Part shown: piece after piece, positions 12,802 through 51,819 of the stretch
How positions within the stretch are numbered: position 1 is the stretch's first letter
How the letters are laid out: every line of letters begins with the position of its first letter
Origin: Marsupella aquatica
Taxonomy: Eukaryota; Plantae; Marchantiophyta
Length of the DNA stretch: 64,000 nt
Direction of reading: 5' to 3'
NCBI GenBank assembly: GCA_973895155.1
Contig: OZ316894.1
Span: forward strand, 24,674,709-24,738,708
The notes under the pieces: generated by a model
What the model saw: only the letters and a program-made list of their open reading frames with translations
What the model was told of the DNA's origin: nothing
The model's database searches: none
Translations under genes and position numbers: made by a program

Positions 12802-15800
12802 TTGGAAGAGATCCAACGTTTGCCAAAGGCACGACAACCTTCGGATCCTGCCATGGGCCGACACCTTTTGGGACGGATGGACATTGAGTGTCCATGTTGC
12901 AAAGCTCTTCATTGGATTGAAGAGTGCAAGGCCGGAACGCACCGCCATCCGTGCTTCACAATGTGTTGTGCCGATGGGAAGGTGGATTTGCCTCCAATTG
13001 GTGCTCCTCCAGAGCCTTTGCAGAGTTTGTTGACTGGAGGTAATGTTGCGGCTACAACCTTTCAGAAGAATATTAGAGGGTACAATAATGCCTTGGCATT
13101 TACATCAATAGGTGTTAAAATTGATGAAAGGGGGGGCAATCAGGGTCCGTATTCATTCCGCATACAAGGTGCTTTATATCATCGGGCCGGAAGCCTCTTG
13201 CCGCCTGATGGAGAGGGTCCCAAGTTTGCTCAACTCTATATTCATGACACGGGGAATGAGTTGGGCAACAGGTATTCTGCACAACATGAACCTTTTTTCT
13301 CTTAAGATGCATTTTTAGTTGCAATAAGTTGAGTCTCATTGGATTTTATGTTGGGTTGCAGGATGAATCGCATGCCACAGTTGGATGAGGCGGTGCTTGC
13401 TTCTTTGCAAGAAATGCTCCATACACACAACCCTTATGTATGAATGTTCAAAAATGTCGGGAGCCGCATTGATGACACTGAGGTGCCAGAGGTTTTGCTA
13501 CGTATTGTAGCTGAGCGTGACACCGACCCAAGACGTTACAACAAACCCACAGCGGATGAGATTGGTGTCATCATGGTTGGGGATGAGGATATTGAAACAC
13601 ATGGTCGAGATATTATCCTGAGGACAAGGGACGGGGGCCTACTTAGGATTTTGGAGTGGCATAGGTCCTATGCTCCTCTCCATTATGTCTTACTCTTTCC
13701 GCATGGTCAAGACGGGTGGTCTTATGACATCCCATTGGTGGGCCATGAATTTCAAGATGGGGTCATTATGGCAGTTGAACCCCAAGCAAGGGGTGGACGC
13801 AATGGCTCCAAAAAGGTTACACAACTACAATACTATGCATACTAGCTTGCTACACGCAAGGCGAGGTGATGATTGGCTGCTTCGTGGAGGGCGATTGCTA
13901 AAGCAATATATTGTGGACGCATATGCATGCATAGATCAAACGCGACTAACCTATATTCGCAACAATCAAAAAAAGTTGCGCACCAAACTATATCAAGGGC
14001 TTCAAGATGCAGTTCAAGATGGAGATGCACGTGCAGGTGATGTGGGTAGGACCTATATTTTGCCATCGTCATATGGGGGTAGTGCTCGAAATATGATGTA
14101 GGCATACCAAGACGCCATGGCCGTTGTACGCACGTATGGCCCCCCTGACCTTTTTATCACATTTATGTGCAATCCTGAATGGCCAGAAGTCAGAGCGGAA
14201 TGCTACCCCTATCAGACCCCGGCCGACCGGGATGACATTGTTGCTCGAGTGTTCAAACTCAAGTTGAAGGCACTTTTGGTGGACATTCGTGCAGGGGTCT
14301 TAGGTAGACCTGTTGCCTCTATGTATGTCATCGAGTTTCAAAAGAGGGGTTTGCCGCATGCCCACATTTTGATCATATTGGTTGAACAACATAAACTACG
14401 CACGCCGGAGTTGGTGGACCAATTAGTTTCTGCAAAGATACCGGACGTGAGGGTATATCCGCAATTATTTCAGACTATAACAAAATGCATGACGCATGGA
14501 CCGTGTGGTCGAGGGTACCCCAACTCGCCTTGCATGGTCGACGGCGGGGTCGACGGACAGTGTAGCAAGGGCTACCCGAGACCATTCTCAGTTGAAACAG
14601 TTTTGGGGGATGATGGGTATCCCATGTATCGACGTCGAGATGATGGGCGCAATTTCACAAAGGACAGAAGCGGCTTTAAGTTTGATAATAGGTGGGTTGT
14701 TCCTCATAGTCCATATTTGAGCATGAAATACAACGCTCATATTAACGTGGAGATATGCTGCTCTATCAAAGCCATTAAGTACTTATATAAGTATTGCTAC
14801 AAAGGGCATGATAAAGCAACAGTGGAGGTAGAGCAGCGTGATGAAATAAAAGAGCATTTGGATGCTAGGTATGTGTCTGCTGCAGAAGGAGTATGGCGAA
14901 TTAATCAGTTTGAAATGTCGGAGAGTAGTACTTCGGTGCAATGACTACAGGTGCATTGTGAGGGGGAACAATCTATTATGTTTCATGAAGATTCTGAGAT
15001 AATTGATGTGGTCCAACAAGAATCTCATAGGGATACAACTCTAACTGGGTGGTTCAAAGCAAATGCTTTGCACGAACATGCGAGACAGATTCTGTATACA
15101 AACTTTCCTCATGACTTTGTATGGAATTCAACTATACGCGCATGGACTCCTCGAAGAAGGGGGTTTAGCATTGGGAGGATGTATTTTGTGCCACCTGCTG
15201 CGGGGGAACGATACTACTTGCGAGCACTTCTACTTCATGTCAAAGGTGCAACATCATTCCTTCACCTTAGGACTTTTGAGGGCATTGTATACCCAAATTT
15301 TCAGGCAACGGCTCTTGCTCGGGGTTTGTACGAGAACGATGAAGAATGGGATAGATGTCTTCAGGAAGCGGCAGGTATGCAGACGGGTGCACAATTGAGA
15401 CAACTATTTATCACAATCATGTTATTTGGAGGTGTTGCTAGACCATGCGACTTGTGGACCCAACATGCATCCAATTTGAGCGATGATTGTTGCTATCGTT
15501 TGCGGTCAATGGGTTTTTTGGATCCCACTGAGGAGCAACAACAGAGCTTTGCCCTATATTTGATCAATGAGGCTTTGAAAAGTATTGGTAAAACATTGTT
15601 GGCGTTTGGTCTTCCAGTTCCAAGTATGCAATTTTTTGAAGAACTAGAAAATAGGAATCGTTTGATACGGGAGGAGACATGCTACCCGATTGATGCACTT
15701 CTTCAACAACTTGCAGAACAGGAGCCGTTGTTAAATGATGGGCAAAGGGTAGCCTACACTGCAATACTTGCAGTGGTGAGGGCTCGAGATGGAGGAACAT

Positions 15801-17138
15801 TTTTTGTTGATGGGCCAGGAGGGACGGGAAAAACATTTGTCGAGAATATTCTATTGAGGAGAGTGCGTGTAGATGGGGATGTGGCATTGGCTGTGGCTTC
15901 CTCGGGTATTGCAGGTCTTTTGTTAGATGGAGGGCGCACTGCCCATTCGCGATTCAAGCTTCCGTTGAAACCGATCTCAACGTCAACATGTGCTGTTCAA
16001 AAGCAATCTGACCTCAGTTGGTGGGTTGTTACGGAGGGCATCTTTTATCTTATGGGATGAAGCACCCATGATCCATCGGCATGGAGTTGAGGCGTTGGAT
16101 AGAACGCTACGTGACATACGAGATTGTGACCAAATTTTTGGAGGAGTTGTGGTTGTGTTTGCAGGAGATTTTCGACAAGTACTTCCTGTGAAGGCAAGGG
16201 CCAGTCGTCCGGAGATTGTGGGGTCGTGTTTGAAGAAATCTTACATCTGGAGTAGTATACAAACGTACAAACTAACAGAGAATATGCGGGCAAGAGGAAC
16301 ATTGGCATCTCCTGAGTTTGGCAATCTTACATTTGCAGAGTGGCTTCTTGCATTGGGCGATGACAAACTCCCAAAGGAGGGACCTTCAAATAACCTTATT
16401 AAATGTCCGGACCCGTGTCCGGAGTCTATGGTGGTGGAGGGAGGACGTGTGGAATCTTTGATTAGTGCAATCTACCCATCTCTTTTGAACGTGGATGATA
16501 AGTTCTTAAGCGAGAGGACTATCCTAGCGCCAACCAACGATGAGGTGCTCAAAATCAACAATTGCATTCTAGAAGAACTTCCTAGGGAGTCAAAGGAGTT
16601 TTTAAGCGTCGATCGTCCGGATCAACTAGAAGGGGAGAATTTTTATCCTACGGAGTTCTTGAACACGCTGACACCGAGTGGTTTACCACCTCACAAGCTG
16701 GTACTGAAGGTTGGATGCCCTATAATCTTGCTAAGGAATATAGATCACTCGCTTGGATTATGTAATGGCACAAGGCTCATTGTGAGATCCATGAATCGTC
16801 GTGTCATTGAGGCACGAGTCCTTGCAGGAAAATATGTCGGAACTATTACGTTCATCCCACGCATTCCATTAACGTCTGATGAATCACTTCCTTTTATATT
16901 ACGTAGGGTCCAGTTTCCCATCCGAGTGGCATATGCAATGACCATCAACAAGGCTCAAGGTCAAACTTTAGAACATGTAGGGTTGCAACTTTCAAAACCT
17001 GTTTTTAGTCACGGCCAGTTGTATGTAGCATTCTCAAGAGCAACATCGCCTAGAAGTATTAAGGTTTTGCTTCCAGATTCTGAGGAGGGTCATGCAAGGT
17101 TGACCAAAAATGTTGTATATGATGAAGTTCTTTATTGA
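12802..17138 (+). pseudogene. Helitron RepHel (HUH Y2 endonuclease + PIF1/SF1B helicase), disrupted
   Basis: N-terminal CPCCKALHW...CCADG; Rep motifs PDLFITFMCNPEW, IEFQKRGLPHAHILI (HUH), YLYKYCYKG; helicase motifs DGPGGTGKT, WDEAPM, GDFRQVLPV, QFPIRVAYAMTINKAQGQTL, HGQLYVAFSR. One GT-AG intron 13272-13361. In-frame stops at 13441, 14099 and 14942; frameshifts near 13843 and 16020. The N-terminus may extend to ~12039. Confidence 0.93.
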
Positions 17139-17349
17139 ACACGAATAAAGTTGGCATGCATATGGTATCAATTATCTTCATGTATTTGCATTTAAGCATG
17201 TTATGTATTTCATCTTCATCATGTTTGCCATATCCCATGACATCTTTTTTCCAAACCTTGACCTTGACCTTTGTGCCTCGCTTAAACATCTTTTCTCTTA
17301 TGGACATATTTTGCTCATCTCAATATCTTTTGCTCATCACAACATCTTC

Positions 17350-17770
17350 TCATCACTCGACATCTTTTTATCACTTGAGGTCTTTTGATCACCTTGACAT
17401 CTTTTTACGCCTCGACATCTTTTATCACCTTGACATCTTTTATCACTCGACATCTTTTTATCACTCGACATCCTTTTATCACCTCAACATATTTATATCA
17501 CCTCAACATATTTATATCACTCGACATCTGTTTATCACTCGACATCCTTTTATCACCTCAACATATTTATATCACCTCGACATCTGTTTATCACTCAACA
17601 TCCTTTTATCACCTCGACATATTTATATCACTCGACATCTGTTTATCACTCGACATCCTTTTATCACCTCGACATATTTATATCACTCGACATCTGTTTA
17701 TCACTCGACATCCTTTTATCACCTCGACATATTTATATCACTCGACATCTTTTTATCACTCGACATCTTT
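17350..17770 (+). repeat. Helitron 3' subterminal minisatellite (17-18-bp units)
   Basis: About 20 copies of tttatcac(c)tcgacat(c/a), arranged in ~52-bp higher-order triplets, ending just before the terminal hairpin and CTAG. Confidence 0.9.
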
Positions 17771-20489: not shown

Positions 20490-21025
20490 AAAGATAAAAG
20501 ATGTCAAGGTGAGAAAAAGATGTCAAGGTGATAAAAGATGTCGAAGAGAGAAAAAATGTTGAGGTGAGAAAAGATGTCAAGATCCTAATAGAGGTGAGCA
20601 AAAGATGTCTACGGAGGTGATAAAAGAAGTAGAGGAGAGAAAAGATGTTGAGGTGAGAAACATATGTCGAGCAGAGAAAAGATGTTGAGGAGAGAAATAA
20701 ATGTTGAGATGAGAAAGAAATTGAGGAGAGAAAATATGTCAAGGTGAACAATGGATATTGAGGAGAGAAAAATTAAGATGTTGAGAAGAGAAACATCTAT
20801 CTGCAAATGAGACAAAAAGATGTTGAGCAAAAAAAGATGTAAAGTAGAGCAATATATTTCAAGGAGACAAAATAATGGCAGGATAGCATATTATAGAGCT
20901 AGATGGGAAGAACCTCACCATCACAAACTAAATGTCAGGGCAACTCATATAGCTGAAGTGTTGTAGCCCCATGCCTGTGCATTGTACAAAAGATTTTGAG
21001 ATGAGAAAAGATAGTGAGGTGAGGA
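20490..21025 (-). mobile_element. Degenerate Helitron 3'-end remnant(s) in inverted orientation
   Basis: Minus strand 20993-20963 reads cttttgtacaatgcacaggcatggggctac, versus ctttcgtgcaacgcactggcatggggctag at the intact Helitron end. 20490-20830 is the reverse complement of the ctc(a/g)acatctttt minisatellite. Confidence 0.75.
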
Positions 21026-35466: not shown

Positions 35467-38400
35467 TCAATCGTCATGTGGAGTAGCAGCTTCCACGGTC
35501 ATCATGCGTCGCACGCTCCGCAGTCCAATCGCCTGGCAGTGTCGGTGGTGAACTGATGGCGATAGTGATTTGGTGAAGAGATCCGCACAGTTGTCTGCAT
35601 TTGAAATCTGCAAAATGTTGATCTCTTTTCCGTGTAACTCGTGGGTGTAGAAAAACTTTGGAGCTATATGCTTCACGCGATCGCCTTTGATGAATCCTTT
35701 TGTGATCTGCTGTATACATGCTGCGTTATCCTCAAAGATGTTAGTAGGCTTTGTTAGTGGTGGTAGGCCGCATTTGGTGTTGATGTGGTTTATAAAGGAT
35801 CGTAACCAAACGGCTTCACGACTAGCTTCATGTAGAGCTAAGATTTCTGAGTGATTTGATGAGGTTGCTGTTAGGGTCTGTTTCACGCTTTTCCAAGAAA
35901 AAGCGGTACCCCCTATGGTAAAAACATATCCAGTTTGGGATTTTGCGGTATCAGTGTCAGAGAGGTATCCGACATCCGCATATCCTATGAGCTCGTGGTT
36001 TGCATCGAATGGGTAAAATAACCCGATATCGGTGGTTCCACGTAGATATCTAAATACGTGCTTAACTCCATTCCAGTGTCTGGCTGTGGGAGTTGCACTA
36101 TGTCTAGCTAGTAAGTTAACTGCAAATGCAATGTCTGGTCGTGTCTGATTTGCTAAATACATTAATGTTCCTATCGCAGAAAGATACGCAGTTTCTGGTC
36201 CTAATATTGGTTCATGTTCTTCGCGCTTGCGAAAAACATCAGTATTGTTTTCTAATGAACGTACCACCATTGGTGACGTCAATGGGTGTGCTAGGTTCAT
36301 ATTGAACTGTTTTAGGATCTTTTCGGTTTGTGTGGTTTGGTGGAGCATCATGCCAGTAGGTAAGATCTCCAGTTGTAATCCTAAGCAAAAGTTTGTATGT
36401 CCAAGGTCTTTCATCTCAAATGTTGATTTAAGACAAGTAATAGTATCTTCGGTAATTTGGGGTGTCCCAAATATGTTTAAGTTGTCAACATATATATAAA
36501 CGATGACATATTCGTCATCCACATGTTTAATAAATAAACATGGGATAATGGCATCATGGGAAAAACCCATGGCAATCATTTCATCAGTAAATCTTTGATA
36601 CCATACTCTGCCACTTTGTTTCAGGCCATATAATGCCTTCAACATGCGGATAGCTAGTCCACGGCGAGTATTCTGTACGGTTGACACAACGGTGTCGTTA
36701 TTATGAGTTACATGTGTAGATGACACATGAGGTGTAACTTGAGATAATTGTTTTATAACTTATGTAAATATGGGATATGCGATTTAGCGCCTTGAGCTAA
36801 AGCTCGGCGACGTTGCTCCAACTCGGGAGGTGATCGCATGTATAGACAAGTGTCTAGAGTTCCATATAGATATGTGGTCGCAACATCCAGTTGTCGCATT
36901 TGTAGTTTGTGAAAAATGGCAAATTCGATAAGGTATCGGAATGTTGTGCTATCCATAACTGGTGAGTAAGTTTCATCGTAATGAATTCCTGGTTGTTGAG
37001 TAAATCCTTTCCCTACCAGACGTGCTTTGTAGCGTACAACTTGGCCTTTATCATTTCTTTTGTGGACGAATGTCCACTTGTAGCCAATGAGGTGTACGTC
37101 TTGCGGTGTTGGTTCAATTGGACCAAAAGTGTGTCTGCTTAGTAGGGAATCTAATTCTCCGTTTATAGCTTTTTGCCATTCAGGCCAATCTGGTCTGTTT
37201 TGGCATTCTAAGATAGATATTGGTTCGGGTGTTTCGTCTGTGATATGTGTTGCCACCATTAATGCAAAAGCATCATCTATTGAAGTAGTATTTCTATCCC
37301 ACATCGTACCGGTGTGTGCGTAGTGGATAGAAATCTCTTCATGAGTTGTGGATTCGGTATGATCGACATCAGGTGAAGGTGATATAGATGAACCATGCCT
37401 TCTTGGTTGTTTATCTTTTGATCCCAAAGGTCTACCTCGTTTGGCACGAGGCTGGGATGTACTTGCTGGCTCACTTGATAATTCAATGAGAGTGGATGCT
37501 CTCGCAGCTGGAATATGTGAGCGGGTAACTTGTGATGTATCGATGAAACCGTCGGGAAGTTCTTCCACAATTTTGTGGAGTTGTAAAACTCGTTGAACTT
37601 CTTTCTCCCCTTGATTGGTTCGAAGGTCTTGCCAAAATGGCGAATGTCTTTCCCACTCCAAAGGTGGTTGTGGGTGTGCAGGGGTTATTAATGATGGATA
37701 AACGTGTTCATCAAAATGGCAATCTAGGAATCTAGATTTAAAGACGTAGCCAGTTGTAGGCTCCATATATCGGATTATGGACGGAGAGTCGAATCCGATG
37801 TATATCCCCAACTGTCGTTGGGGTCCCATCTTGGTTCGTTTGGGTAGAGTAATGGGGACCATTACTTGATATCCAAATGAACGAAGATGTGATAGGTCTG
37901 GTTTGATACCATTAGCAATTTGGTATGGGCTATAGGTATTAAAAGCCGATGGGCGGTATTGAATTAATGCATTAGCCTGTAATATGGCATGTCCCCATGC
38001 TGAGACGGGGAGTTTTGACTGCATTAGTAATGGGCGTGCATTAACTGAAGGCGTTTAATGACCGCTTCAGCTAATCCATTCTGAAAATGCACGTGAGGTA
38101 CAAGATATTGTACGTCGATGCCAAGTGATGTGCAAAAGTCGTCAAATGTTTTGGATGTGAATTCCCCTGCATTGTCCACCCTTAGTGCCTTAATGGGGTG
38201 ATCTGGGAATTGTGCCTTCACGCGCAGGATTTGCGCCAAGATGCGAGGCATCACCATGTTTCTCGTTGAAAGCAGGGTCACATTTGACCATTTAATGGAT
38301 GTGTCGATTAATACCATAAAGTAGCGGAAAGGTCCGCTTGGAGGGTTAATTGGCCCGCAAACATCTGCATGGATGATTTCCAAGAATTGGGGTATTTTAG

Positions 38401-40150
38401 TTGGCAATTTTGATGTCGTGGGCCTTGTTATTAATTTGCCGCATGAGCATGCAGTGCATGGGGTGCTCGCTGGAATGTGGCGTGTATTTAATGGAATGCC
38501 TCTTGAATTCTTAATGATTTTGGTTAGCATTGATTGGCCGGGGTGGCCGAGGCGTGCATGCCAAAGCGCATGCAATTCGCTTGTGTTGGCATTGTTATGC
38601 AGACATTCAATATGAGTTACATAAAACCCGCAAGGATACGAGAAAATGGTTTCTTTAATGGTTTTCCCCGTAGGGGTATTTTCAACCAAGTGTATCACTT
38701 CTTGGTCTCTGGTATCGCCCGTCTGGACGTGTAGTCCATTTGCTCGTATATCTCTAAAACTGAGGAGATTACGGGTTGCGTTCGGGGCAAAAATGGCAGA
38801 TTCTATGTGAATCGTTGTACCCTACGGGAGTCTAAGGGAAGCTAGGCCGAAGCCTTCTTCTATTTGGCTAGGGTCATTTATAGTGGTCAGGGATCTATGT
38901 GAGGGTGTGATCTTGTAAAAAAGGTGTCTATCTCGGAGGATAATATACGTAGTCGCACTATCGATAATACATGTGTTGTGGCTATTTAAGTCTGGTGTAG
39001 TGGAGCTACTTGCCACTAAGTGTGCCTCGGGTTGGGCGGGTAGGTCTGAAAAGTCTTGGAATGGGTCACTCGACTCCATAACCGCCCCGTGGATTTCACG
39101 GGGTGGTGCCCTAGAGGTTTGTTCATCCTGGATGGACCGTTGATATAGTTCTCTGAGGTGTTGCGGGATTCTACAGTTTCTCGCTAGGTGGTTTGTCATG
39201 CCACATTCATGGCATTTCGATCGTTCTCGTTGTTGTCGGGATTGTGACCAATCGTTTCTATGGTTGTTGTTATATGTTCTTCCACCGCCGCGTCCTCCAC
39301 GTCCACCACGTCCGCCACATCCTCCTCGTCCTCTGTGTCCTCCGCGTCCTCCACGTCCTTCGCGTCCTCCGCGTCCTCTAAAGGTCCGTTGGGAGTTATA
39401 TTGTGGATATTGGTTATAGAAACTCCCCCTGTTGTGGGTGTTTCTTTGGTTGCCATTCCTAGTACGCTTAATGCCCTGCCTGGATGTGGAGGGTTCAGCG
39501 TTTTTGATATTATGGGTTTCACTCTGTGATCCTGAGGGCATTGTACCCGCAGGGCATTTTCTAGAGTTAACTAAAAGAAGCTCTTGGTTTCTTTTTATGA
39601 CTAGGAGGTGGGCGATGAGCTCGGAGTATTGTTCGAACTTCATGTTCCGATACTGAGTTGATAGTAACACGTTCGAAGAGTGAAACGTGGACAAGGTCTT
39701 TTCTAGTAAGTCCTTGTCGGTGGCTGGCTCGCCACAGAGTGCGAGGGTTGAAGTTATTCTAAAGAGTTCGCTATTATAGACTAAAATAGAGGTAAAGTCC
39801 TGGACCCGCAGGTTTAGCCAGTCTTGCCTGGCTTTAGGTAGTTCGACCAGTTTTTGGTGGTCGAATCGGGTCTGGAGCGCTGTCCATAGTTCACGAGGGG
39901 TTGAGAGGTGCATGTATTGTCTTTGCAAGAATCTATGGATGTGGTGTCTGAGGAATACTAGAGCCTTGGATTCATTGGCTTTAGTTAACGGGTCTGGTTG
40001 GGGTTCGCCAGCTAGTATGGGTTGAGCTATCCTTATAGCTGGGAGTAGGGTTAGCGAGGTTAGGTTCTCTTTGAGGTTCATGGACCATTTCAGGTAGTTG
40101 CTACCATCGATTTCTAGGGCTGGAAAGGTTAGTTTCTCTAGGTTGGTCAT
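35467..40150 (-). pseudogene. Copia gag-pol polyprotein, disrupted
   Basis: Gag with RGG tract and zinc knuckle CHECGMTNHLARNC; PR CIIDSATT; INT WHARLGHPG, CTACSCGK, HADVCGP, RVDNAGEF, QNGLAE; RT YKARLVGKGF, LYGLKQSGR, YVDNL (catalytic YVDD mutated); RH GYADVGY, FEDNAAC, ADLFTK. In-frame TAG at 38824-38822, 1-nt deletion near 38035-38040, frameshift in RT near 36730-36755. Confidence 0.93.
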
Positions 40151-41169
40151 CGGGGTGGTGGCTTGATTCCTTTTAATGGTAATTGGGGCTTATTTACTAG
40201 TAAGTATAGTAAAAGTCGACAAAGCACATTTCTGCGGCATGCAAAGTGGGGCTGGGTGTAGAGAGCATGCAAATCCGAAATTCGATTTTAGGGTGTGCAC
40301 TTAGGATTTAGGTTTTCCTTGGTATTTGGTAACTGCAAAGTTTCCTTTGTATTAGTTCTTTCCTTTGTTAAACTGTGCAGTAATGAAGTTTTGCAGTTTA
40401 TGCAATTATGGGTGGTAATTTACTCGTGACCTGGTTAAGTGCACATGCGGCTTTGTAAGGTTAATTTTCTTTGTTACGAAATGCAGTTATGGAGGTTTTG
40501 CGGTTATGTGCGCTTATTTGGTTAAGTGCAACTTTTCCTTTGTGATTGAAATCTCTTTGACTGATTTTGCAGTTAAGGAGGTTTTGCACTTAGCAGCGGT
40601 TTTCGAGGTTTTCTCGACGTTTTGACATTTTTGTTGCGAGATTTGTCGACGTGCCGTCCTGCACCCGGGTCTCCTTTGATCAGGTTCATTTTTTTTTCTT
40701 CTTTGCCAGGCCTGCTTTTCTCTCCTCTGTTCACTTTGCTCTTGTCCTTATGGAGATCGGGCCTTCCATGCTCGTTGTTGTGTCTTCGATTCTTTAAAGA
40801 AAAAGGGTTCTTATCGCTTCTCCTTTCAATGCTGCCCTTATGCCAACTACTTTCTTGCAGTAGTCATTTAGGGTGAAATCGTGAGCAGACAGTTGTCATT
40901 TATGTTCTCTCCCGTTCTTCAAGGATTCTCCTTCTGTGCTTATCAATTGATGAAACTCTGATCCATCATCGGCTCTACACTATCCATCGATTCGCTCACA
41001 AGTCTTTTGTTATCTTTCGTTCGTTTTGCTCCAGTAATAACCAGACTCACGTTCTCCATCTCCAATCACTCATTGTCCATTCAGCATAAAAAAAAAATTC
41101 TCAAATCTTCCATGGTCTGTTCTCTCTTTTCTTCTTCACTCTGCTGGCTGAGACCTCGTGCTGATAACA

Positions 41170-44049: not shown

Positions 44050-46192
44050 GCTTGCCCGTCCGCTCATCTCGGAATTCGAAGACTCCCCATGTCCTCTAAA
44101 GCTTTTGTTGATGGGAGTGCTGCTCTCTGCAAGATCATCACTTCACCTCACCTCAGCTCACCTCAATTCACTGCCCTTCACACTCCATTACGTTGTGAAG
44201 AAACAAAGATCTGGAAAATAAATCCAGCTTACAAATCCGTGTTTGCTGAAGCACATCGTTGATTCATACTCAAGACTGAGGTTTGTGCTGAATGCTTACT
44301 AATTAATCGAGGGAGCAGCCACAAAAAAGGTCTGCTCTGGTACAGAGCACAGATCTGGTTCTCTATTAGAAGATCTGATGTGGAGGTTGGCGATCGGGGC
44401 GTTCTCTGAGACGTTGAGACTTGAGGGAGATTAATGGCACCGCACAATGCGGAGACTAGAGTCCAGATTGCAGATTCGGATTCAGATACACTGTGTGTAA
44501 TAGGTGGATGCCGGATATTCCTCGGGTGCTGACTGGGAACGGCGCCCCTGTCTCGTGGGGTTTGTGACTTTGTGGGTATGTCGGATAGGGACTGGTGGTC
44601 AGGGTGGGGGACGCTGAAGGAATGGCGAGTCACTGGTACTATCCCTTTTTTTGAGTATGTGACCGTCGGGAGCAAAGATCGGAGCACTTTCTGAGATCCC
44701 TTTTCCGCCCCTTTCTTTAGGGTCCTCATTAGTCTCCATCATTCTTCCTTGTCTTCCCTCCTGGCTGTCATCGCATTATGCTCACCTCGACAGCCCAATC
44801 TGGAGTTTTGACTGGAGTTAACGAGTGGAAACGCAGACAGCACTCTCCTGAGCGATCTGTTGCGATGCGAATTTGAAAATAATTATCTCGGTATGTGACA
44901 CTATCGCTACAACTACAACGGTAGTTTTTCTTCCGTCGTCTTTTGTTGGTCTGCCTGCACCTCACGGTTCACTCGAATCTGTGCTTTTACTCGAGTTAGA
45001 TGGGGACAATGCTGTGAATTGCCCCACCTTCATGAGCAGCAGTGAATAGGACAATTCAGTACAGTAGTGAACTAGTGGTCGGTTAGGGAGGAGCTTTGTT
45101 GCCAGATCTGCTTTGAAAAAAGTTCCTTTCCGAGTAGATTTTCGACTGTTGATGCATCCGTCCAGCATTGTGTCGTTCTGAGAGGGACGAATGAGCAGCA
45201 CCGCTGTCGTCGTTTGCCAAGTGGAGGTTGTTAGTAAGTCATCCCGGAGTCAAACGGTGAAGTTCACAGCAACTGATGGTAATAGCCGGATATTACATCT
45301 GTCTGGTCACATTGGATTGAGAAGTCATAGAGTTCCGGATCTGTCATTGTTCGTTACGTTGCACGGATCGAGCTTTACATTGCAGAAGTCGACGAGAGAG
45401 CTCCAGATCTCTTTCCTGTTGTCAGATCTGATCGAACTGATCTGTGTTTTGTGTTTGGAAATGTGTCGGAGAGACTCTCTTTTTGCTTAGGCGCGCCCGT
45501 CCGGCATTTTAATTAGGTTGAGGAAGAAGAAATGTGACAGATTTTTGAAGAAATGAACATCCAAAATTGGCCCACTACTTCGTGGTTCAATGTGATCTGT
45601 GAGATTCTCCTTCCGCGCTGTAGTGAGGGGAACACTACAGTTCCAGAACTTTCTCTGAACATCCTGATTCTACCTCTCTTGAATGGCAACACAGAACGTT
45701 CGCTCTCTTTTGCTTGAGGGGCATTCGTCAGCTTGAAGAAGAGCCCGACCTTGAGGAAAGAAAGGAGTGATTGAGGAGGACCATGATAGGATGATGAGGA
45801 AGTCTTGGCAAGGAGGAAATGACGATTTGGATTTTTATACGAGTTAGGGAGTGTTGTCTATTTGTCTTGCTGTTTGAGGTACTAACGCTACAGATGGGTT
45901 CACTGATCGTACAGTGCTGAAGGAAACAGGTGTCATCGTATGCATCGTGACTGGAGGATGGTCCTTGTGGACCAGATCTGTGGAATGCCGTCGTTGCTGG
46001 GATGCGTAGACTTGGAAGATAACGTTTTCTGGCTTGCTAGCTGGTAACAGCGAAGTGGACGAGCCATTGGAGCAACAGCAGCAACAGAAAAAGAAGAGAT
46101 TGCTTTCTTCGTCTTTTCCTAATCCAGTCGTACATTTCTACTCTTTAATTTGGGTTGGCCCCTTTCAAGACGAACTGCGAACGAATCTCACA

Positions 46193-49100
46193 ATGGGTCC
46201 CGAAGTATCTAACTCAACTGGGAGGACAGTGGCGGTGATAATGGTGGGCGGACCGACCAAAGGTACTGTTTGGGGAGGGATATTTGTCTTTAAGTATTGC
46301 AGTCTCTCTAGTTATCAGGTGAGGGACACAGAACAACGGACAGTCAGTGAGAGATGTAATAATGGGGTATAGTGAAAGATGGCAATAATAGTGAAAGATC
46401 TATGGCGTTTGGCAGTGGAGACATTCATAGCTGTTGAGCGCATTTTGGAACCGGGATGCCATGGACCACGCGAAGTTTTCAGGGACATCAATATTGAGCA
46501 CACATAGATAGAATGACCCAATTTACACACATTGTATACAGTTTCCGGTAATCGAGTGGAGGTATCAGAATTAAGAATCGAAACGTCTATTGACGGGTCA
46601 TGTAGTTTTAGCGTTCTTTCAATGAATGGAAAGAGACTCGCCTGCAGCATCGCTTAGCATCATAGGATAGCTCTAGAAGTGGACTTTGTTGCAATTCTCC
46701 CCATCGTGGTAAAGGCAGCTGGCAGATCTGCTTGGAGTGCTTTACTGGGAAACTTGTGTGAACAACTGAGAGGAGAAGGACCAGCATTGGTGCATCATAA
46801 GCTTTAGCTTGAGACTTCCGTGACCTCTCTTTCTGTATTGCAGGTACTCGATTTCGGCCGTTGTCATTCAACCTTGCTAAACCTCTCTTCCCACTCGCGG
46901 GACAGCCAATGGTCCACCATCCGGTCCTCTCCTGCAAGAAGGTCTGTCCACCGTTCCTTCCTCCAGATCTGGAAATATTCGCTTTGTACGATGTGTACCT
47001 TACTGACCTTACGATATGTACGATATCGACCTTGACAGTGATCTTATCATTTGTGAATTTCTGGATTCTTGATGCAGATACCAAACTTGGCCCATATTTA
47101 CTTGATTGGCTTTTATGAAGAACGGGACTTTTCTCTATACTGTTCTGCCATCTCCAGTGAGCTGAAGATTCCAGTGAGGTATGAAGTAACACTAATGTCC
47201 TTTATTGCTAAAATCATTACTACTAGCGCTGTCACAATTTCTATATCCCTCCCCATGTCCTTTGTCACAATGTGGCTAAGCAAACCATCCCATGGTTTTG
47301 GTGCCGCGTTAAGATGGCGGTTTGAAGAACGTTATGCATCCGGATATGCACTAATGGCAGCATATGTTTCATCCAACAGATATCTACGAGAAGACAGACC
47401 ACATGGATCAGCTGGTGGTCTTTACAGCTTCAGGGATCTTATCCTGGAGGATTATCCAGTAAGCACTTTATCAAATGCTGCTTAATATATTTCTCTCCGT
47501 CATATGTTTGTTTGTTTTTTTGGAACATAGTAATAATGTTGGGCATGCTTTGTCATAATTAAAAGTGAATAGACTTGACATGGACCCAGATGTTCATGAC
47601 AAAGATGATCTCTGCTATGATGAAACCAAAGGCAAGTCTCGTAGAAAATAACCCCGCGCAGTGAAGCAGCGTATGAATTATACTTTCTGTGGTTGTGCCA
47701 GGAAGATATCATCGTCTTAAATTGTGATGTTTGCTGCAGCTTTCCTCTTCGAGAAATGTTGGGTATGCTACACCATATGGTCTGGAAAGGATTCGTTTTT
47801 TCCTTAACATCGGATCTTTGTTCTTGAGTAAAACGAAAATCAGCATTGAGATATGCAGTTTGATGACATTGCACAAACTGTGTGGTTAGCTGCTTCGAAT
47901 CCCCTGTCACTAAAGTAAGATTTTGGCACGGAGTTTCTAACTCATGAGTGGTGCCTCCGTACCGTCCATACTGCAGCTGCACATAAGTCTTTTGGAGGAA
48001 TCGGCACGTTACTTGTGAAGAAGGTAATTTCTGTGTGAGTGCGTAGAGGTGGTGTAAGATTTCAAAGATCTGAATCGGACAATGATCTTCCTCTACTTTT
48101 TCATATCGTTGCAAGTAGCAATACCTGAATGTTGGCTTTTTGTTTGCTCAGGTGTCAGCAGACTTTGCCAGTCAGTTTGGTGAACTAGTGGCTGATCCAG
48201 TCACAAAGGAGCTGCTTCATTATGCTGAGAAGCCAGAGACTTTTGTAAGGCCACATCTCCAGTACATGCTCCAACCTTTTTGAGAACTTCAACTGAGCTT
48301 GTGATGAGTGTTAGATTTTGATTCCCGAGGCACTACTGGGACTTTGACTGAGGACTAATCACAACTGCAATCTTCCCTCTGATGAAAGTCATTACCGTTC
48401 TTTCAGGTGAGTGACCTCATAAACTGCGGAGTCTATATCTTCACACCAGAGATATTCAAAGCTGCTACAGATGTGTCAACATCTCGCATTGAGAAAGGTA
48501 GTCAGAAAGCAGTTGTCCACGTGCAGCATGTGCCCCATGGGTTCACTAACAGCTGAAATGAGATAAATGGATACATGAGGATGTTATGTTTGGTGAATTG
48601 AAATTTGGGTGGGATAAGTGCAGGCCCAATTGTGCAGACAGGAGCAGCTGTCAAATGACTGTAGGATGACTAAGCTCACCACTGTTTTTCCTGTGTCATA
48701 CCAGATGTTTTGCGACGTCTAACTAGCCTCGAAGCTCTACAGTCAGCAACAAAGTGAGTCTTAGATTCCTAAATGGCTCGTGTAGGTTTTTTGGGTGCTT
48801 ACTTCGGTTTGTGTGCTCTACCAGCTATTTTACGACGTGTATCTAGCTTCGAAGCTCTTCAGTCAGCAACGAAGTGAGTCTTAGATTCCCATCAATAATC
48901 AACGAGAGTATATGTGTTGTGTAATATTTTGCTCTCATCACACACTGTTCACAAAGCACCAAAGTGCAATTGTTGGGAAGAACATGGATAAGAATGTTCC
49001 CTTACCATTTTAAGGAAATACTGATCACAACCAGTGTGTCATCCTTGTTGGATTTTGTGGTCTTTCTCTCTTGACAAGTTTGCTCCATTGTCATATTTAC

Positions 49101-51128
49101 AATTGGGAGAGTGCATACTTTTGTGTCCAGAGCAATCCCTTCCGACTTTCTGAGACTTGATCAGGACATTTTGACACCCCTTGCTGGCAAGAAGCAGCTT
49201 TACACTTTTGAAACTACCGATTTTTGGGAGCAGATTAAAACCCCAGGGTGAGCGTTCGTCTCATGTTTTCAATTTTATGCCTTTGTGGCTGAAGAAGAAC
49301 TTCTACATACTTTTTCTATAGCTACTATCTATACTCTCCTCTCCAGCCCGTGTGAGATCTTTCTCCTTGCAACGAACCGAAGAACTCTAATACTCAGCTG
49401 TCCTCCCAGGTTTGTCACTGATAGTATGTAAATGTGTCAATTTGGATTTGTAAGCGAGTGGTTTTCGTAAGTAACGTTCGTCATAAATTTGACACTACCA
49501 ATTGTGCGTACTATGTCAGCATTTCCATACGGTGCTCGTCCCTGTATCTCCAAGAATATCGGCGAATCAATCCAGGGCTCCTAGCCAAAGGAAAGAATAT
49601 TGTCGGTGACGTCTTTATTCATCCATCGGCTAAAATTCATTCAACATCAAAGGTACTGGATTCTTGGTAACTTCAAGGGCCTATGGTTTACGATGTGGTT
49701 TGGGTGGAACAAATGTGTAAATTACATTTGCGATTGATGTTTAGTAATACAAGACACTAACTCCGACAGAAGGGAGAAACAAGTAACGACCGGAGATAGT
49801 TTTGTTCAATTCTCAACTATATTGGGTACTGTTTGATCTTATTCCAGAGGTTGGTTTTGGTTTATATACTCAACTTTTTGGTAGTCCTCAATTAATGTCT
49901 ATTGTAAAGGTAAATGTCAACAATTGACAGAATCTCTCATGTTTTGGTGCCAATGATTGCACAGATCGGGCCGAATGTGTCTATCTCTCCCAATGCACGA
50001 ATTGGTCCTGGAGTGCGGCTTCTTAATTGTATCATACTGGATGATGTGGAGATTATGGTAAGGTTACTGTGTGGAATGTTGCCTAGAGTTTGTGTTCTCT
50101 ATTTGACTATTTTATTCCAGTTTTTGCAAAGTATGTGGTCCGGTTCTTTCTAAATGATTTGGGGTTTTGGCAGGATAATGCGATTGTAATGCATGCAATC
50201 GTTGGGTGGAAATCATCCATAGGTCGATGGTCTCGAGTGCAGGTAAATGAGTCATGCCTTTTATTGATATTACATAGGCTTCCTTCATGAATTCCTTCTA
50301 ATCCTTTGTTCGTTATGTCTCACACGCCCTGGTAGACAACATAAAATCCAATCCACGACAGGTCGGGCTGTTAGAGCCTTTCAGACATGGACGATGTTTG
50401 AAAATGCTTTTGAAGATTTTACCTCTTTCAAACTGTGAAACTAGCATCTACAGTAGGGTGAAGGGGCTTAAGAGATCCCAAAAGAAAATTTCGAACTTGT
50501 CATATCCTTCTTAACATCTGGAAGTACGGAAGCATAAGAATCTAATGTGTAGTTGGCATTCTGCAAGCCAAGGTCATGTTAGGCCCATATTAGCAACTAT
50601 TGCCTATATTGATTTTAAAACAGAATAGATATAAGTAAATTCGCAGTTTTAGCACTCGGTGGTCGTCTTCAGACTGTCAGTTCTGATAGTTTTGCTTGCC
50701 TGATTCGTCTCATCGTCAACACCTCTCTTTAGATCTTGTTAGCAACGCTAGACCTCAAATCCAAAGATCTTAGAGGTTGTCTTGTTCTTGTAAGCAGGGA
50801 GGAGGAGATTATACTCAAAAACTGGGTATATCAATTCTAGGTAAGGCACTAAACTCTTGTCTAGTAGCAACGGCCGTACGATTGATTGGGTGTTGCTAAG
50901 CGCTTACAATACTCTTCACACGAGGAACTATTTTCAACAAAAAGTGTCCAGCTTTTTCAATTTAGGTAATGTTGAGAACCTGTGAACTCAAAGATTTACT
51001 AAGCTAGGATTTTTTGTCCATCTGCAGGTGAAGATGTCACAGTTGAAGATGAGGTTGTCGTTATAAAATGCATAGTGCTTCCGCACAAGCTTCTTAACGC
51101 CAGCGTGCTCGAGGAAATCATTCTTTAG
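46193..51128 (+). CDS. KJC: GDP-mannose pyrophosphorylase alpha / KONJAC-type (GMPPA) subunit; 15 exons per isoform with alternative exon 9a/9b
   Basis: Exons 46193-46262, 46844-46941, 47078-47178, 47380-47458, 47702-47762, 47977-48023, 48152-48244, 48407-48497, [48705-48753 or 48825-48873], 49131-49247, 49520-49652, 49965-50057, 50174-50242, 50798-50840, 51028-51128; all GT-AG and phase-compatible. [18 protein letters not shown] (the GGPTKG insertion typical of GMPPA/KJC), [54 protein letters not shown], hexapeptide repeats IGPNVSIS, C-terminus EEIIL. Confidence 0.95.
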
Positions 51129-51819
51129 TGAAACGCAACTTTCCATGAGCCATTTAAGTATCTTATTGGAACTCATTGCGTAGTTGTTCCATGTGAATCA
51201 TTATTATTTAACAGTCTTTGATCTAGTTTTCGTAAACGGAACTCTGTGCTTATGTAGTCAAGCATCCTACTTGCATCAATTGGAAACATTTGAGCCCTTT
51301 GTGGTCACATAAAATTCTTCTGGGCTTTCTCCTAGCCTGACAATTCATCATGGGCCATGTACTTCTCAAGGTCTCTTCTCTGGGAAGACCAGATTAGACT
51401 GTCCTACTTGAGGGACATGGAGCAAGGCGATTTGAATCCAAGGAGATGGAATTCACTTCACATTCTTGGTGCTGTCTCTAAAGCTTATCTGTATGTGGTC
51501 ACATGTGAAATGAAACGTCAAGCGCTAGAATTAACCACTCTTCTTGAACATAGTTGGTCGAGTTCTTTTTCACGTTTGCTGTCGTGCCTTCCAGATTAGA
51601 TTTGTAGACAACTATTTTGTAAACATGAATTATTGAGTTCCATATTTTCAATATATATAAACTAAATGATTTATATCTCGGGCACATTGTTGGGTGGTTG
51701 GATGGCTGGGTCGGGACTAAATATCAAATGCCTAGGTGCAGATTAAAAGATTCACACTTCAGCACATCGCTGAGTGTGGACTTTCATATCAGAAGCACTG
51801 CTATTAAATATTTCCATTG

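Follow-up and report, generated by a model that had tools for sequence, protein, structure and literature searches.

The stretch of DNA analysed here, the window, comprises 64,000 nucleotides of contig OZ316894.1 of the liverwort Marsupella aquatica. It carries a KONJAC/GMPPA-type gene with 15 exons on the forward strand (46193-51128), and in the gene model all introns begin with GT and end with AG. Further features of the window are the coding region of a Helitron-type Rep/PIF1 helicase (14102-17138, forward strand; PF14214, PF05970), which is broken into three frames, a Ty1/copia retrotransposon (35467-40189, reverse strand) with gag, integrase and reverse transcriptase in four separate frames, and an 18-nt unit repeated about 23 times in tandem (17342-17770), to which an array at 20496-20793 is related. 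Splice junctions were taken from contigs of the sequencing run X1; this run stems from another organism and was assigned to RNA by guess, but in its contigs exons are joined where the GT..AG introns were predicted. The KONJAC gene and the elements around its ninth exon are located as follows.

46193-51128, forward strand: coding span of the KONJAC/GMPPA-type gene, 15 exons and an alternative exon 9, encoding 414 aa; its introns coincide with joints in spliced contigs of run X1.
48407-48497, forward strand: exon 8, constitutive, upstream of the pair, ends in phase 1 (gene model; X1 joint 48244>48407).
48675-48679, forward strand: candidate branch site of exon 9a, CTCAC with the A at 48678, homologous to that of 9b (motif scan and alignment; predicted).
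48705-48753, forward strand: exon 9a, 49 nt, 17-letter peptide of the liverwort-type class (L-N/T-S) (gene model; X1 joints 48246>48703 and 48753>49133); the class is matched by P0121, a spliced liverwort transcript, and by Calypogeia, Marchantia and Riccia records.
48754-48824, forward strand: intervening intron, 71 nt, with an in-frame TGA at its start if retained; kept in a second gene copy (gene model, run contigs).
48798-48802, forward strand: candidate branch site of exon 9b, CTTAC with the A at 48801, the 48th intron base (motif scan; predicted).
48825-48873, forward strand: exon 9b, 49 nt, 17-letter peptide of the land-plant consensus class (V/I-S-S-F) (gene model; Marchantia record P0004; X1 joint 48870>49131).
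48845-48846, forward strand: cryptic AG within 9b; 9a joined there gives an in-frame form longer by 9 aa (sequence scan; same stitch in both Calypogeia fissa models).
48874-48889, forward strand: 9b donor and 16 nt identical to 48754-48769, end of the duplication unit of about 120 nt (repeat and alignment).
49131-49247, forward strand: exon 10, constitutive, downstream of the pair, starts in phase 2 (gene model; among solved structures closest to Arabidopsis KJC2, 8YRE_A, E 1.2e-16, followed by human GMPPA).

The assignment to the KONJAC/GMPPA subunits, proposed in a preliminary description of this DNA, held. The window protein has a two-residue insertion in the pyrophosphorylase signature (GGPTKGTRFRPL), where VTC1 and GMPPB show a two-residue gap. 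Nucleotidyl-transferase and left-handed beta-helix domains (PF00483, PF25087, PF00132) were found in all four liverwort relatives scanned, one of which is 91% identical to the window protein. With the liverwort relative P0121 as query, KJC2 was matched with an E value of 2e-191 and GMPPA with 7e-102, compared with about 1e-57 for VTC1/GMPPB. A tree of 25 rows groups the window protein with Calypogeia fissa and a Calypogeia-like transcript (100/100), as sister to Marchantia and Riccia (100/99), which places the source among the leafy liverworts. The structure matched best by exon 10, PDB 8YRE, bears the title VTC1-KJC2; human GMPPA (PDB) follows. The gene is supported by these comparisons as a KONJAC/GMPPA regulatory subunit, that is, one involved with the supply of GDP-mannose, the precursor of vitamin C and cell-wall mannans. 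The text of PMC11066809 describes the two extra signature residues relative to VTC1/GMPPB as a KONJAC/GMPPA feature. According to PMC11066809 and PMC9168903, Arabidopsis KJC1 and KJC2 are without catalytic activity of their own and bind and modulate VTC1, whose activity was raised by 100% with KJC1 and by 50% with KJC2 (PMC11066809).

Between exons 8 and 10 the gene contains two versions of exon 9. Exons 9a and 9b both run from phase 1 to phase 2, differ at 8 bases (3 synonymous, 5 non-synonymous) without indels and have the same type of splice sites, a TACCAG| acceptor and a |GTGAGTCTTAGATTCC donor. Being adjacent, homologous, equal in length and phase and provided each with its own splice sites, they have the features by which homologous mutually exclusive exons are recognised. 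Both belong to a repeat of 78 nt with 86% identity and a spacing of 120; it matches at 67 of the 78 positions, whereas 100 shuffles of the 2.5-kb region reached 43 matches at most. The whole duplication unit takes in the branch region and the 16 identical bases past the donor. Re-derivation of the gene model returned the two exons, their coordinates, splice sites, phases, eight differences, peptides and stops exactly as first described. The statement that the surrounding intron had diverged needs qualification: about 55 nt upstream of 9a and 9b, with the branch and acceptor region, can still be aligned between the copies, the 16 nt past the donors are identical, and the 71-nt intron is kept in the second gene copy. 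An assembly stutter as source of the pair was rejected, because contigs of two other DNA runs span the 9a-9b junction and cross the copy boundary; the contig of X3 shows 0 differences over 48731-48879 and that of X4 8 differences over 48731-49273.

Translation of the gene model with either 9a or 9b alone yields 414 aa. Inclusion of both exons leads to a stop at codon 237, omission of both to a stop at codon 221, and retention of the intron between them to a stop immediately at the 9a donor. The claim that only one or the other exon gives a full-length protein stands in so far as double inclusion and skipping stop early, but in-frame hybrids are also possible: joining 9a to 27 nt of 9b at the cryptic AG results in 423 aa, and a second form of this kind would arise from an AG inside 9a.

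The DNA runs X3, X4 and X5, which represent two organisms and come from two studies, contain a diverged version of the entire KONJAC gene (46150-51400) as its second copy. In the four exon pieces listed this copy differs at 77 of 486 positions, and its introns are mostly unalignable. A contig of X4 with a depth of 51.8 contains its exons 10 and 11 (20/125 and 27/140 differences) and a differing intron between them (203 letters versus 263). By its depth, the same contig was assigned as also spanning the 9a-9b intron, where the depth amounts to 67.6 + 51.8 = 119.4. For record 1 of X1, the alignment covers 48724-48894, 171 bases of which 92 belong to introns, and contains 21 differences and 2 gaps. 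In contrast to the conserved 9a-9b intron, the remaining introns of the second copy drop off as loose ends. Judged by these alignments, the 9a-9b block is conserved at least as well as the coding exons, and the pair appears to be older than the divergence of the two gene copies and no recent accident. That one copy is a dead pseudo-exon from a recent duplication is extremely improbable, given that indels are lacking, that splice and branch signals are intact, that the pair is kept in the diverged gene copy and in Calypogeia, and that both types are spliced or annotated. The preliminary description had named two outcomes that would speak against it, a lack of junctions with 9a and the loss of the pair, or its decay by indels, in related species; neither stands against its conservation in other liverworts.

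Evidence for the use of both exons comes from relatives. Run X1 holds up to four spliced KONJAC copies, and its junctions are not assignable copy by copy. One contig runs into the whole of 9a with the joint 48246>48703 (side 51), and two more contigs have exon-8-like ends before 48703. The joint of 9a with exon 10 (48753>49133, GT..AG) rests on 24 letters, in which the copies differ at 2 places, and the joint of 9b with exon 10 was found at 48870>49131. None of the X1 contigs fitted two places equally, and a joint of 9a with 9b did not occur in the 15 of 32 X1 joint rows listed. P0121 provides an uninterrupted frame of 416 aa of the 9a type on a contig of 1,947 nt. Taking the X1 joints, P0121 and the Marchantia records P0004 and P0124 together, each copy is seen spliced between the same flanking exons in relatives, which bears out the earlier proposal of two live exons used as alternatives. 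We regard either-or use of 9a and 9b as highly likely.

No other intron of the gene is as short as the 71-nt one; the remaining 14 spacers measure 116-581 nt. A motif scan detected a single YTNAY branch motif in it, with the A at 48801, in agreement with the branch site suggested before. Frameshifted transcripts with downstream introns are cleared by nonsense-mediated decay (NMD), and double inclusion or skipping, which shifts the frame with six introns still downstream, would be removed in this way. With about 48 nt between the 9a donor and the predicted 9b branch point, the two sites would be too near each other to be occupied together, which could enforce exclusion; for animal mutually exclusive exons the text of PMC7969005 gives a steric threshold of about 50 nt. 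The combination of steric exclusion and NMD favoured in the preliminary description is a plausible mechanism. Competing RNA pairing of the docking-site/selector (Dscam) type was looked for in 24 probe-target duplex tests, with a lowest p of 0.025 and no intronic value below 0.075, and the local RNA fold around the pair has a z of -0.07; none of the pairing and folding results is significant after 25 tests. A duplex between 9a and 9b (p 0.03) was rejected as regulatory pairing, as it is explained by a palindrome that was duplicated along with the exon.

The same reading frames would also allow a dosage switch or a three-way choice, in which double inclusion or retention of the 71-nt intron sends the mRNA to NMD and the hybrid formed at the AG within 9b has a loop longer by 9 residues. 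Retention does lead to an immediate stop, unspliced X1 contigs cross the pair at depths of 47 and 18, and the in-frame hybrid is found in Calypogeia fissa, where both gene models have the 9a peptide followed by the tail of the second copy instead of two isoforms. However, the X1 contigs may derive from DNA or pre-mRNA, and single-exon forms are what P0121 and the Marchantia records show. The normal 9b acceptor is the one preceded by the only good branch motif, and a gene predictor would presumably build the hybrid if both exons were covered. We therefore take the 423-aa hybrid annotated in Calypogeia for a probable gene-prediction artefact and consider a dosage switch or three-way choice improbable.

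In Marchantia the records P0004 and P0124 of the gene Mp6g00070 are identical outside the exon-9 segment, which reads ATFRRISSF versus AALRRLNSF. The swap records include the consecutive accessions BFI16759.1 and BFI16760.1, and also BBN13009-13012. An allelic difference was rejected on account of the consecutive accessions, which indicate that both isoforms come from one gene; the tandem layout and the exon order in Marchantia we infer from the protein records. Among 281 proteins with both anchors, no multi-residue swap other than that of the Marchantia pair is limited to exon 9. Two of the Marchantia records, P0124 and P0125, differ by one alanine in the 9a-type exon, as would be expected from a tandem NAGNAG acceptor; the form lacking the alanine is also that of the Riccia and M. 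paleacea records.

An asparagine before the serine was present in 6 of 166 distinct loops, all of them from liverworts and from both liverwort classes, a restriction that favours one origin. The split of the leafy and the complex-thalloid class is about 400 million years old. On 14 sites, 9a and 9b have diverged by a synonymous distance of only about 0.26, which is little for a very old pair, so that one ancient origin presupposes that the copies were homogenised or constrained. As the pair is older than two gene copies that have diverged far more, we regard constraint or conversion as the more likely cause of the low distance. Independent or later re-duplication in the leafy and the complex-thalloid liverworts, which would make the pair younger than it appears, could account for the same low distance and for the 16 identical intron bases past both donors, and the first residues of the exon differ by lineage (DV versus AA). 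It does not readily explain why the asparagine at the variable site is confined to liverworts and is accompanied by an S-S-F partner in each of the two lineages, and a pair that predates gene copies differing at 77/486 positions implies that the slow change in the block is real. Re-duplication is distinctly unlikely for these reasons, and one origin of the pair in early liverworts is probable.

Outside the liverworts, a metagenome scan covered at least 59 loci, of which 15 of 59 were dropped because an anchor was missing and 44 were scored; these are redundant and represent 15 distinct peptide sets. A second copy of exon 9 was found in none of the 44 scored moss, algal and seed-plant loci; 42 have one exon 9 and 2, which are KJC2-like, have none. 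The at least 59 loci listed include no liverwort genomic locus. Likewise, no exon-9 swap occurs in the listed members of the moss clusters, from Physcomitrium (three genes), Ceratodon and Sphagnum (at most 15 members listed per cluster). The RRxSSF motif has been lost from the loop in KJC2-like genes of Brassicaceae and in one Physcomitrium paralogue (L013, L014, P0108, P0234).

Exon 9 sits in an insertion that is absent from the catalytic subunit: between the anchors we counted 48 residues in liverworts, 47 in a KJC1-like locus, 40 in GMPPA and 19 in VTC1. With 48 versus 19 residues, the long eta6-alpha6 insertion is present in liverworts. The eta6-alpha6 loop of KJC1 is reported in the text of PMC9168903, which cites Zheng 2021, to be 7 residues longer than that of GMPPA and to take part in allosteric control, and the counts of 47 and 40 match this difference; the way in which KJC controls VTC1 is called unclear there. 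The exon-9 peptide contains a phosphosite in Selaginella (LTsF), Arabidopsis At1g74910 (RVsSF) and rice (RVsSF) (PMC4022089). In Selaginella 34 of 38 rows of these data, from two accessions and apparently the same spectra, place the phosphate on the serine before F, and one table row of PMC4969306 gives localisation values of 0.76/0.24 for the first and second serine. The 12-letter phosphopeptide of Selaginella is similar to peptides of the liverwort 9a class; each of the 38 rows has this type, and the 9b type does not occur among them (PMC4022089).

The first acceptor is S in 9b, and in the 9a class T in the window and N in Calypogeia, Marchantia and Riccia; neighbouring residues differ too. 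Both liverwort copies keep the second serine in the frame L-R-R-x-x-S-x-x-x-L, which we take to be a SnRK1/CDPK-type consensus. Because this frame and the serine that is best localised in Selaginella are retained in both copies, the swap would leave the site itself in place and alter its surroundings and one adjacent acceptor; kinase preference or double phosphorylation would probably change as a result, without loss of the site. Of the phosphorylation-loop swap put forward in the preliminary description, the loop as a real phosphosite in vascular plants stands, but an exchange of the site as such does not. Its second suggestion, control by 14-3-3 proteins, was rejected: a canonical 14-3-3 motif has a proline two residues after the phosphoserine, and at either serine of both copies the +2 residue is L, F or E and the canonical proline is absent. 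Structure predictions of the proteins were poor (pLDDT 44 and 59), with unreliable contacts; in the second model (pLDDT 59), which has VTC1-KJC2 and GMPPA as its matches, residues 219-230 are predicted with values below 50.

The two proteins may also be equivalent, the pair being spliced in a mutually exclusive manner and persisting because deletion of either copy disturbs splicing or because the choice affects mRNA yield only. The shared main serine with its L-R-R-x-x-S-x-x-x-L frame and the mostly conservative substitutions would agree with this, as would the fact that most land plants manage on one exon 9 and that threonine at the changed position is also found in single-exon vascular plants (3 proteins; Selaginella). 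The dN/dS of 9a against 9b, a comparison proposed at the outset, is 0.62 on 16 codons and uninformative. The two classes, however, stay distinct in the same direction (L-N/T-S versus V/I-S-S) in both liverwort classes, and the differences between 9a and 9b cluster in the 5' half of the exon (6/24 versus 2/41 positions, p 0.04). We consider equivalent proteins unlikely; a phosphorylation-linked difference between the isoforms is about as likely as not.

Taken together, the pair is real, conserved and very probably functional. Our preferred reading, to which we give a probability of roughly 0.75, is that exon 9 was duplicated in tandem and that the duplicates were inherited as a mutually exclusive pair, which would supply two subunits with a predicted difference in phosphorylation. 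The duplication would have taken place in an early liverwort ancestor, before the split of the leafy and complex-thalloid lineages, and constraint or conversion would have kept the 3' halves of 9a and 9b alike. Mutually exclusive splicing would then produce two full-length KONJAC subunits: 9b offers two adjacent acceptors (S-S-F, as in Arabidopsis KJC1), and in 9a, which reads T-S-L in the window and N-S in other liverworts, the first of them is altered or missing, which could change the kinase input on a loop modulating the VTC1 enzyme. A stronger version is tentative and rather doubtful, namely that the pair has been a splice-encoded phospho-switch since before the class split, with tandem serines in 9b and a removed or weakened first acceptor in 9a, so that the choice of exon would set the kinase gating of VTC1 and one gene would do by splicing what KJC1 and KJC2 do in Arabidopsis. 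On this version, the pair would count among the oldest plant examples of homologous mutually exclusive exons.

Either-or exons of equal length and common descent are among the most reliably functional splice events of animals and are barely documented in plants. A pair common to both main liverwort classes would demonstrate that such exons are retained in plants through very long spans of evolution. The case further draws attention to the loop, and to the residues, through which KONJAC may be regulated. Marchantia polymorpha carries the same swap, already public in the Mp6g00070 records as unnamed isoforms, and is easily edited, so that the reading is directly testable there. We found no published description of the swap and no paper naming the Marchantia gene; subscription papers and the splicing tables of PMC13642808, a paper on splicing in Riccia whose text lists the gene as expressed, may hold it.

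The mechanism is known, mostly from animals, and is unusual in plants. For Arabidopsis, the text on Kassiopeia reports 99 internal candidates for mutually exclusive exons, none of them annotated (PMC3923563), and in a proteome study 11 of 2,442 events were of this type (PMC10942332). The closest animal case is OGDH with exons 4a/4b (PMC7969005, PMC9741552): there, too, the exons are adjacent homologues of one phase; as proposed for the liverwort pair, they are swapped one for one, are old and tune a regulatory segment of a metabolic enzyme complex, and the branch point predicted for KONJAC would also lie under the steric threshold of about 50 nt (PMC7969005). In contrast to the OGDH type, KONJAC is a plant gene, would owe exclusion to a very short intron instead of a distant branch point in a longer one, and its exon is not a multiple of three, so that NMD can back up exclusion; the text of PMC9741552 mentions neither plants nor GMPPA. 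Arabidopsis FLM/MAF1 is similar as a plant gene with an internal either-or exon that alters an interaction surface (PMC3266260). The FLM exons, however, are unequal (19 and 15 aa) and young, the second being confined to the MAF1-3 clade according to the same source, whereas the liverwort exons are equal-length duplicates in both main classes. Arabidopsis KONJAC1/KONJAC2 and human GMPPA belong to the same subunit family and have the same exon-9 loop (PMC11066809, PMC9168903; PDB 8YRE, 7D72), and the peptide of this loop is the phosphopeptide of KJC1 (At1g74910). The angiosperm and moss loci examined contain one exon 9, and Arabidopsis varies the loop by paralogue, the KJC2 chain in 8YRE being without RRxSSF, whereas liverworts apparently vary it by splicing. 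The parallel between the KJC1/KJC2 paralogues and the liverwort splice pair is suggestive only.
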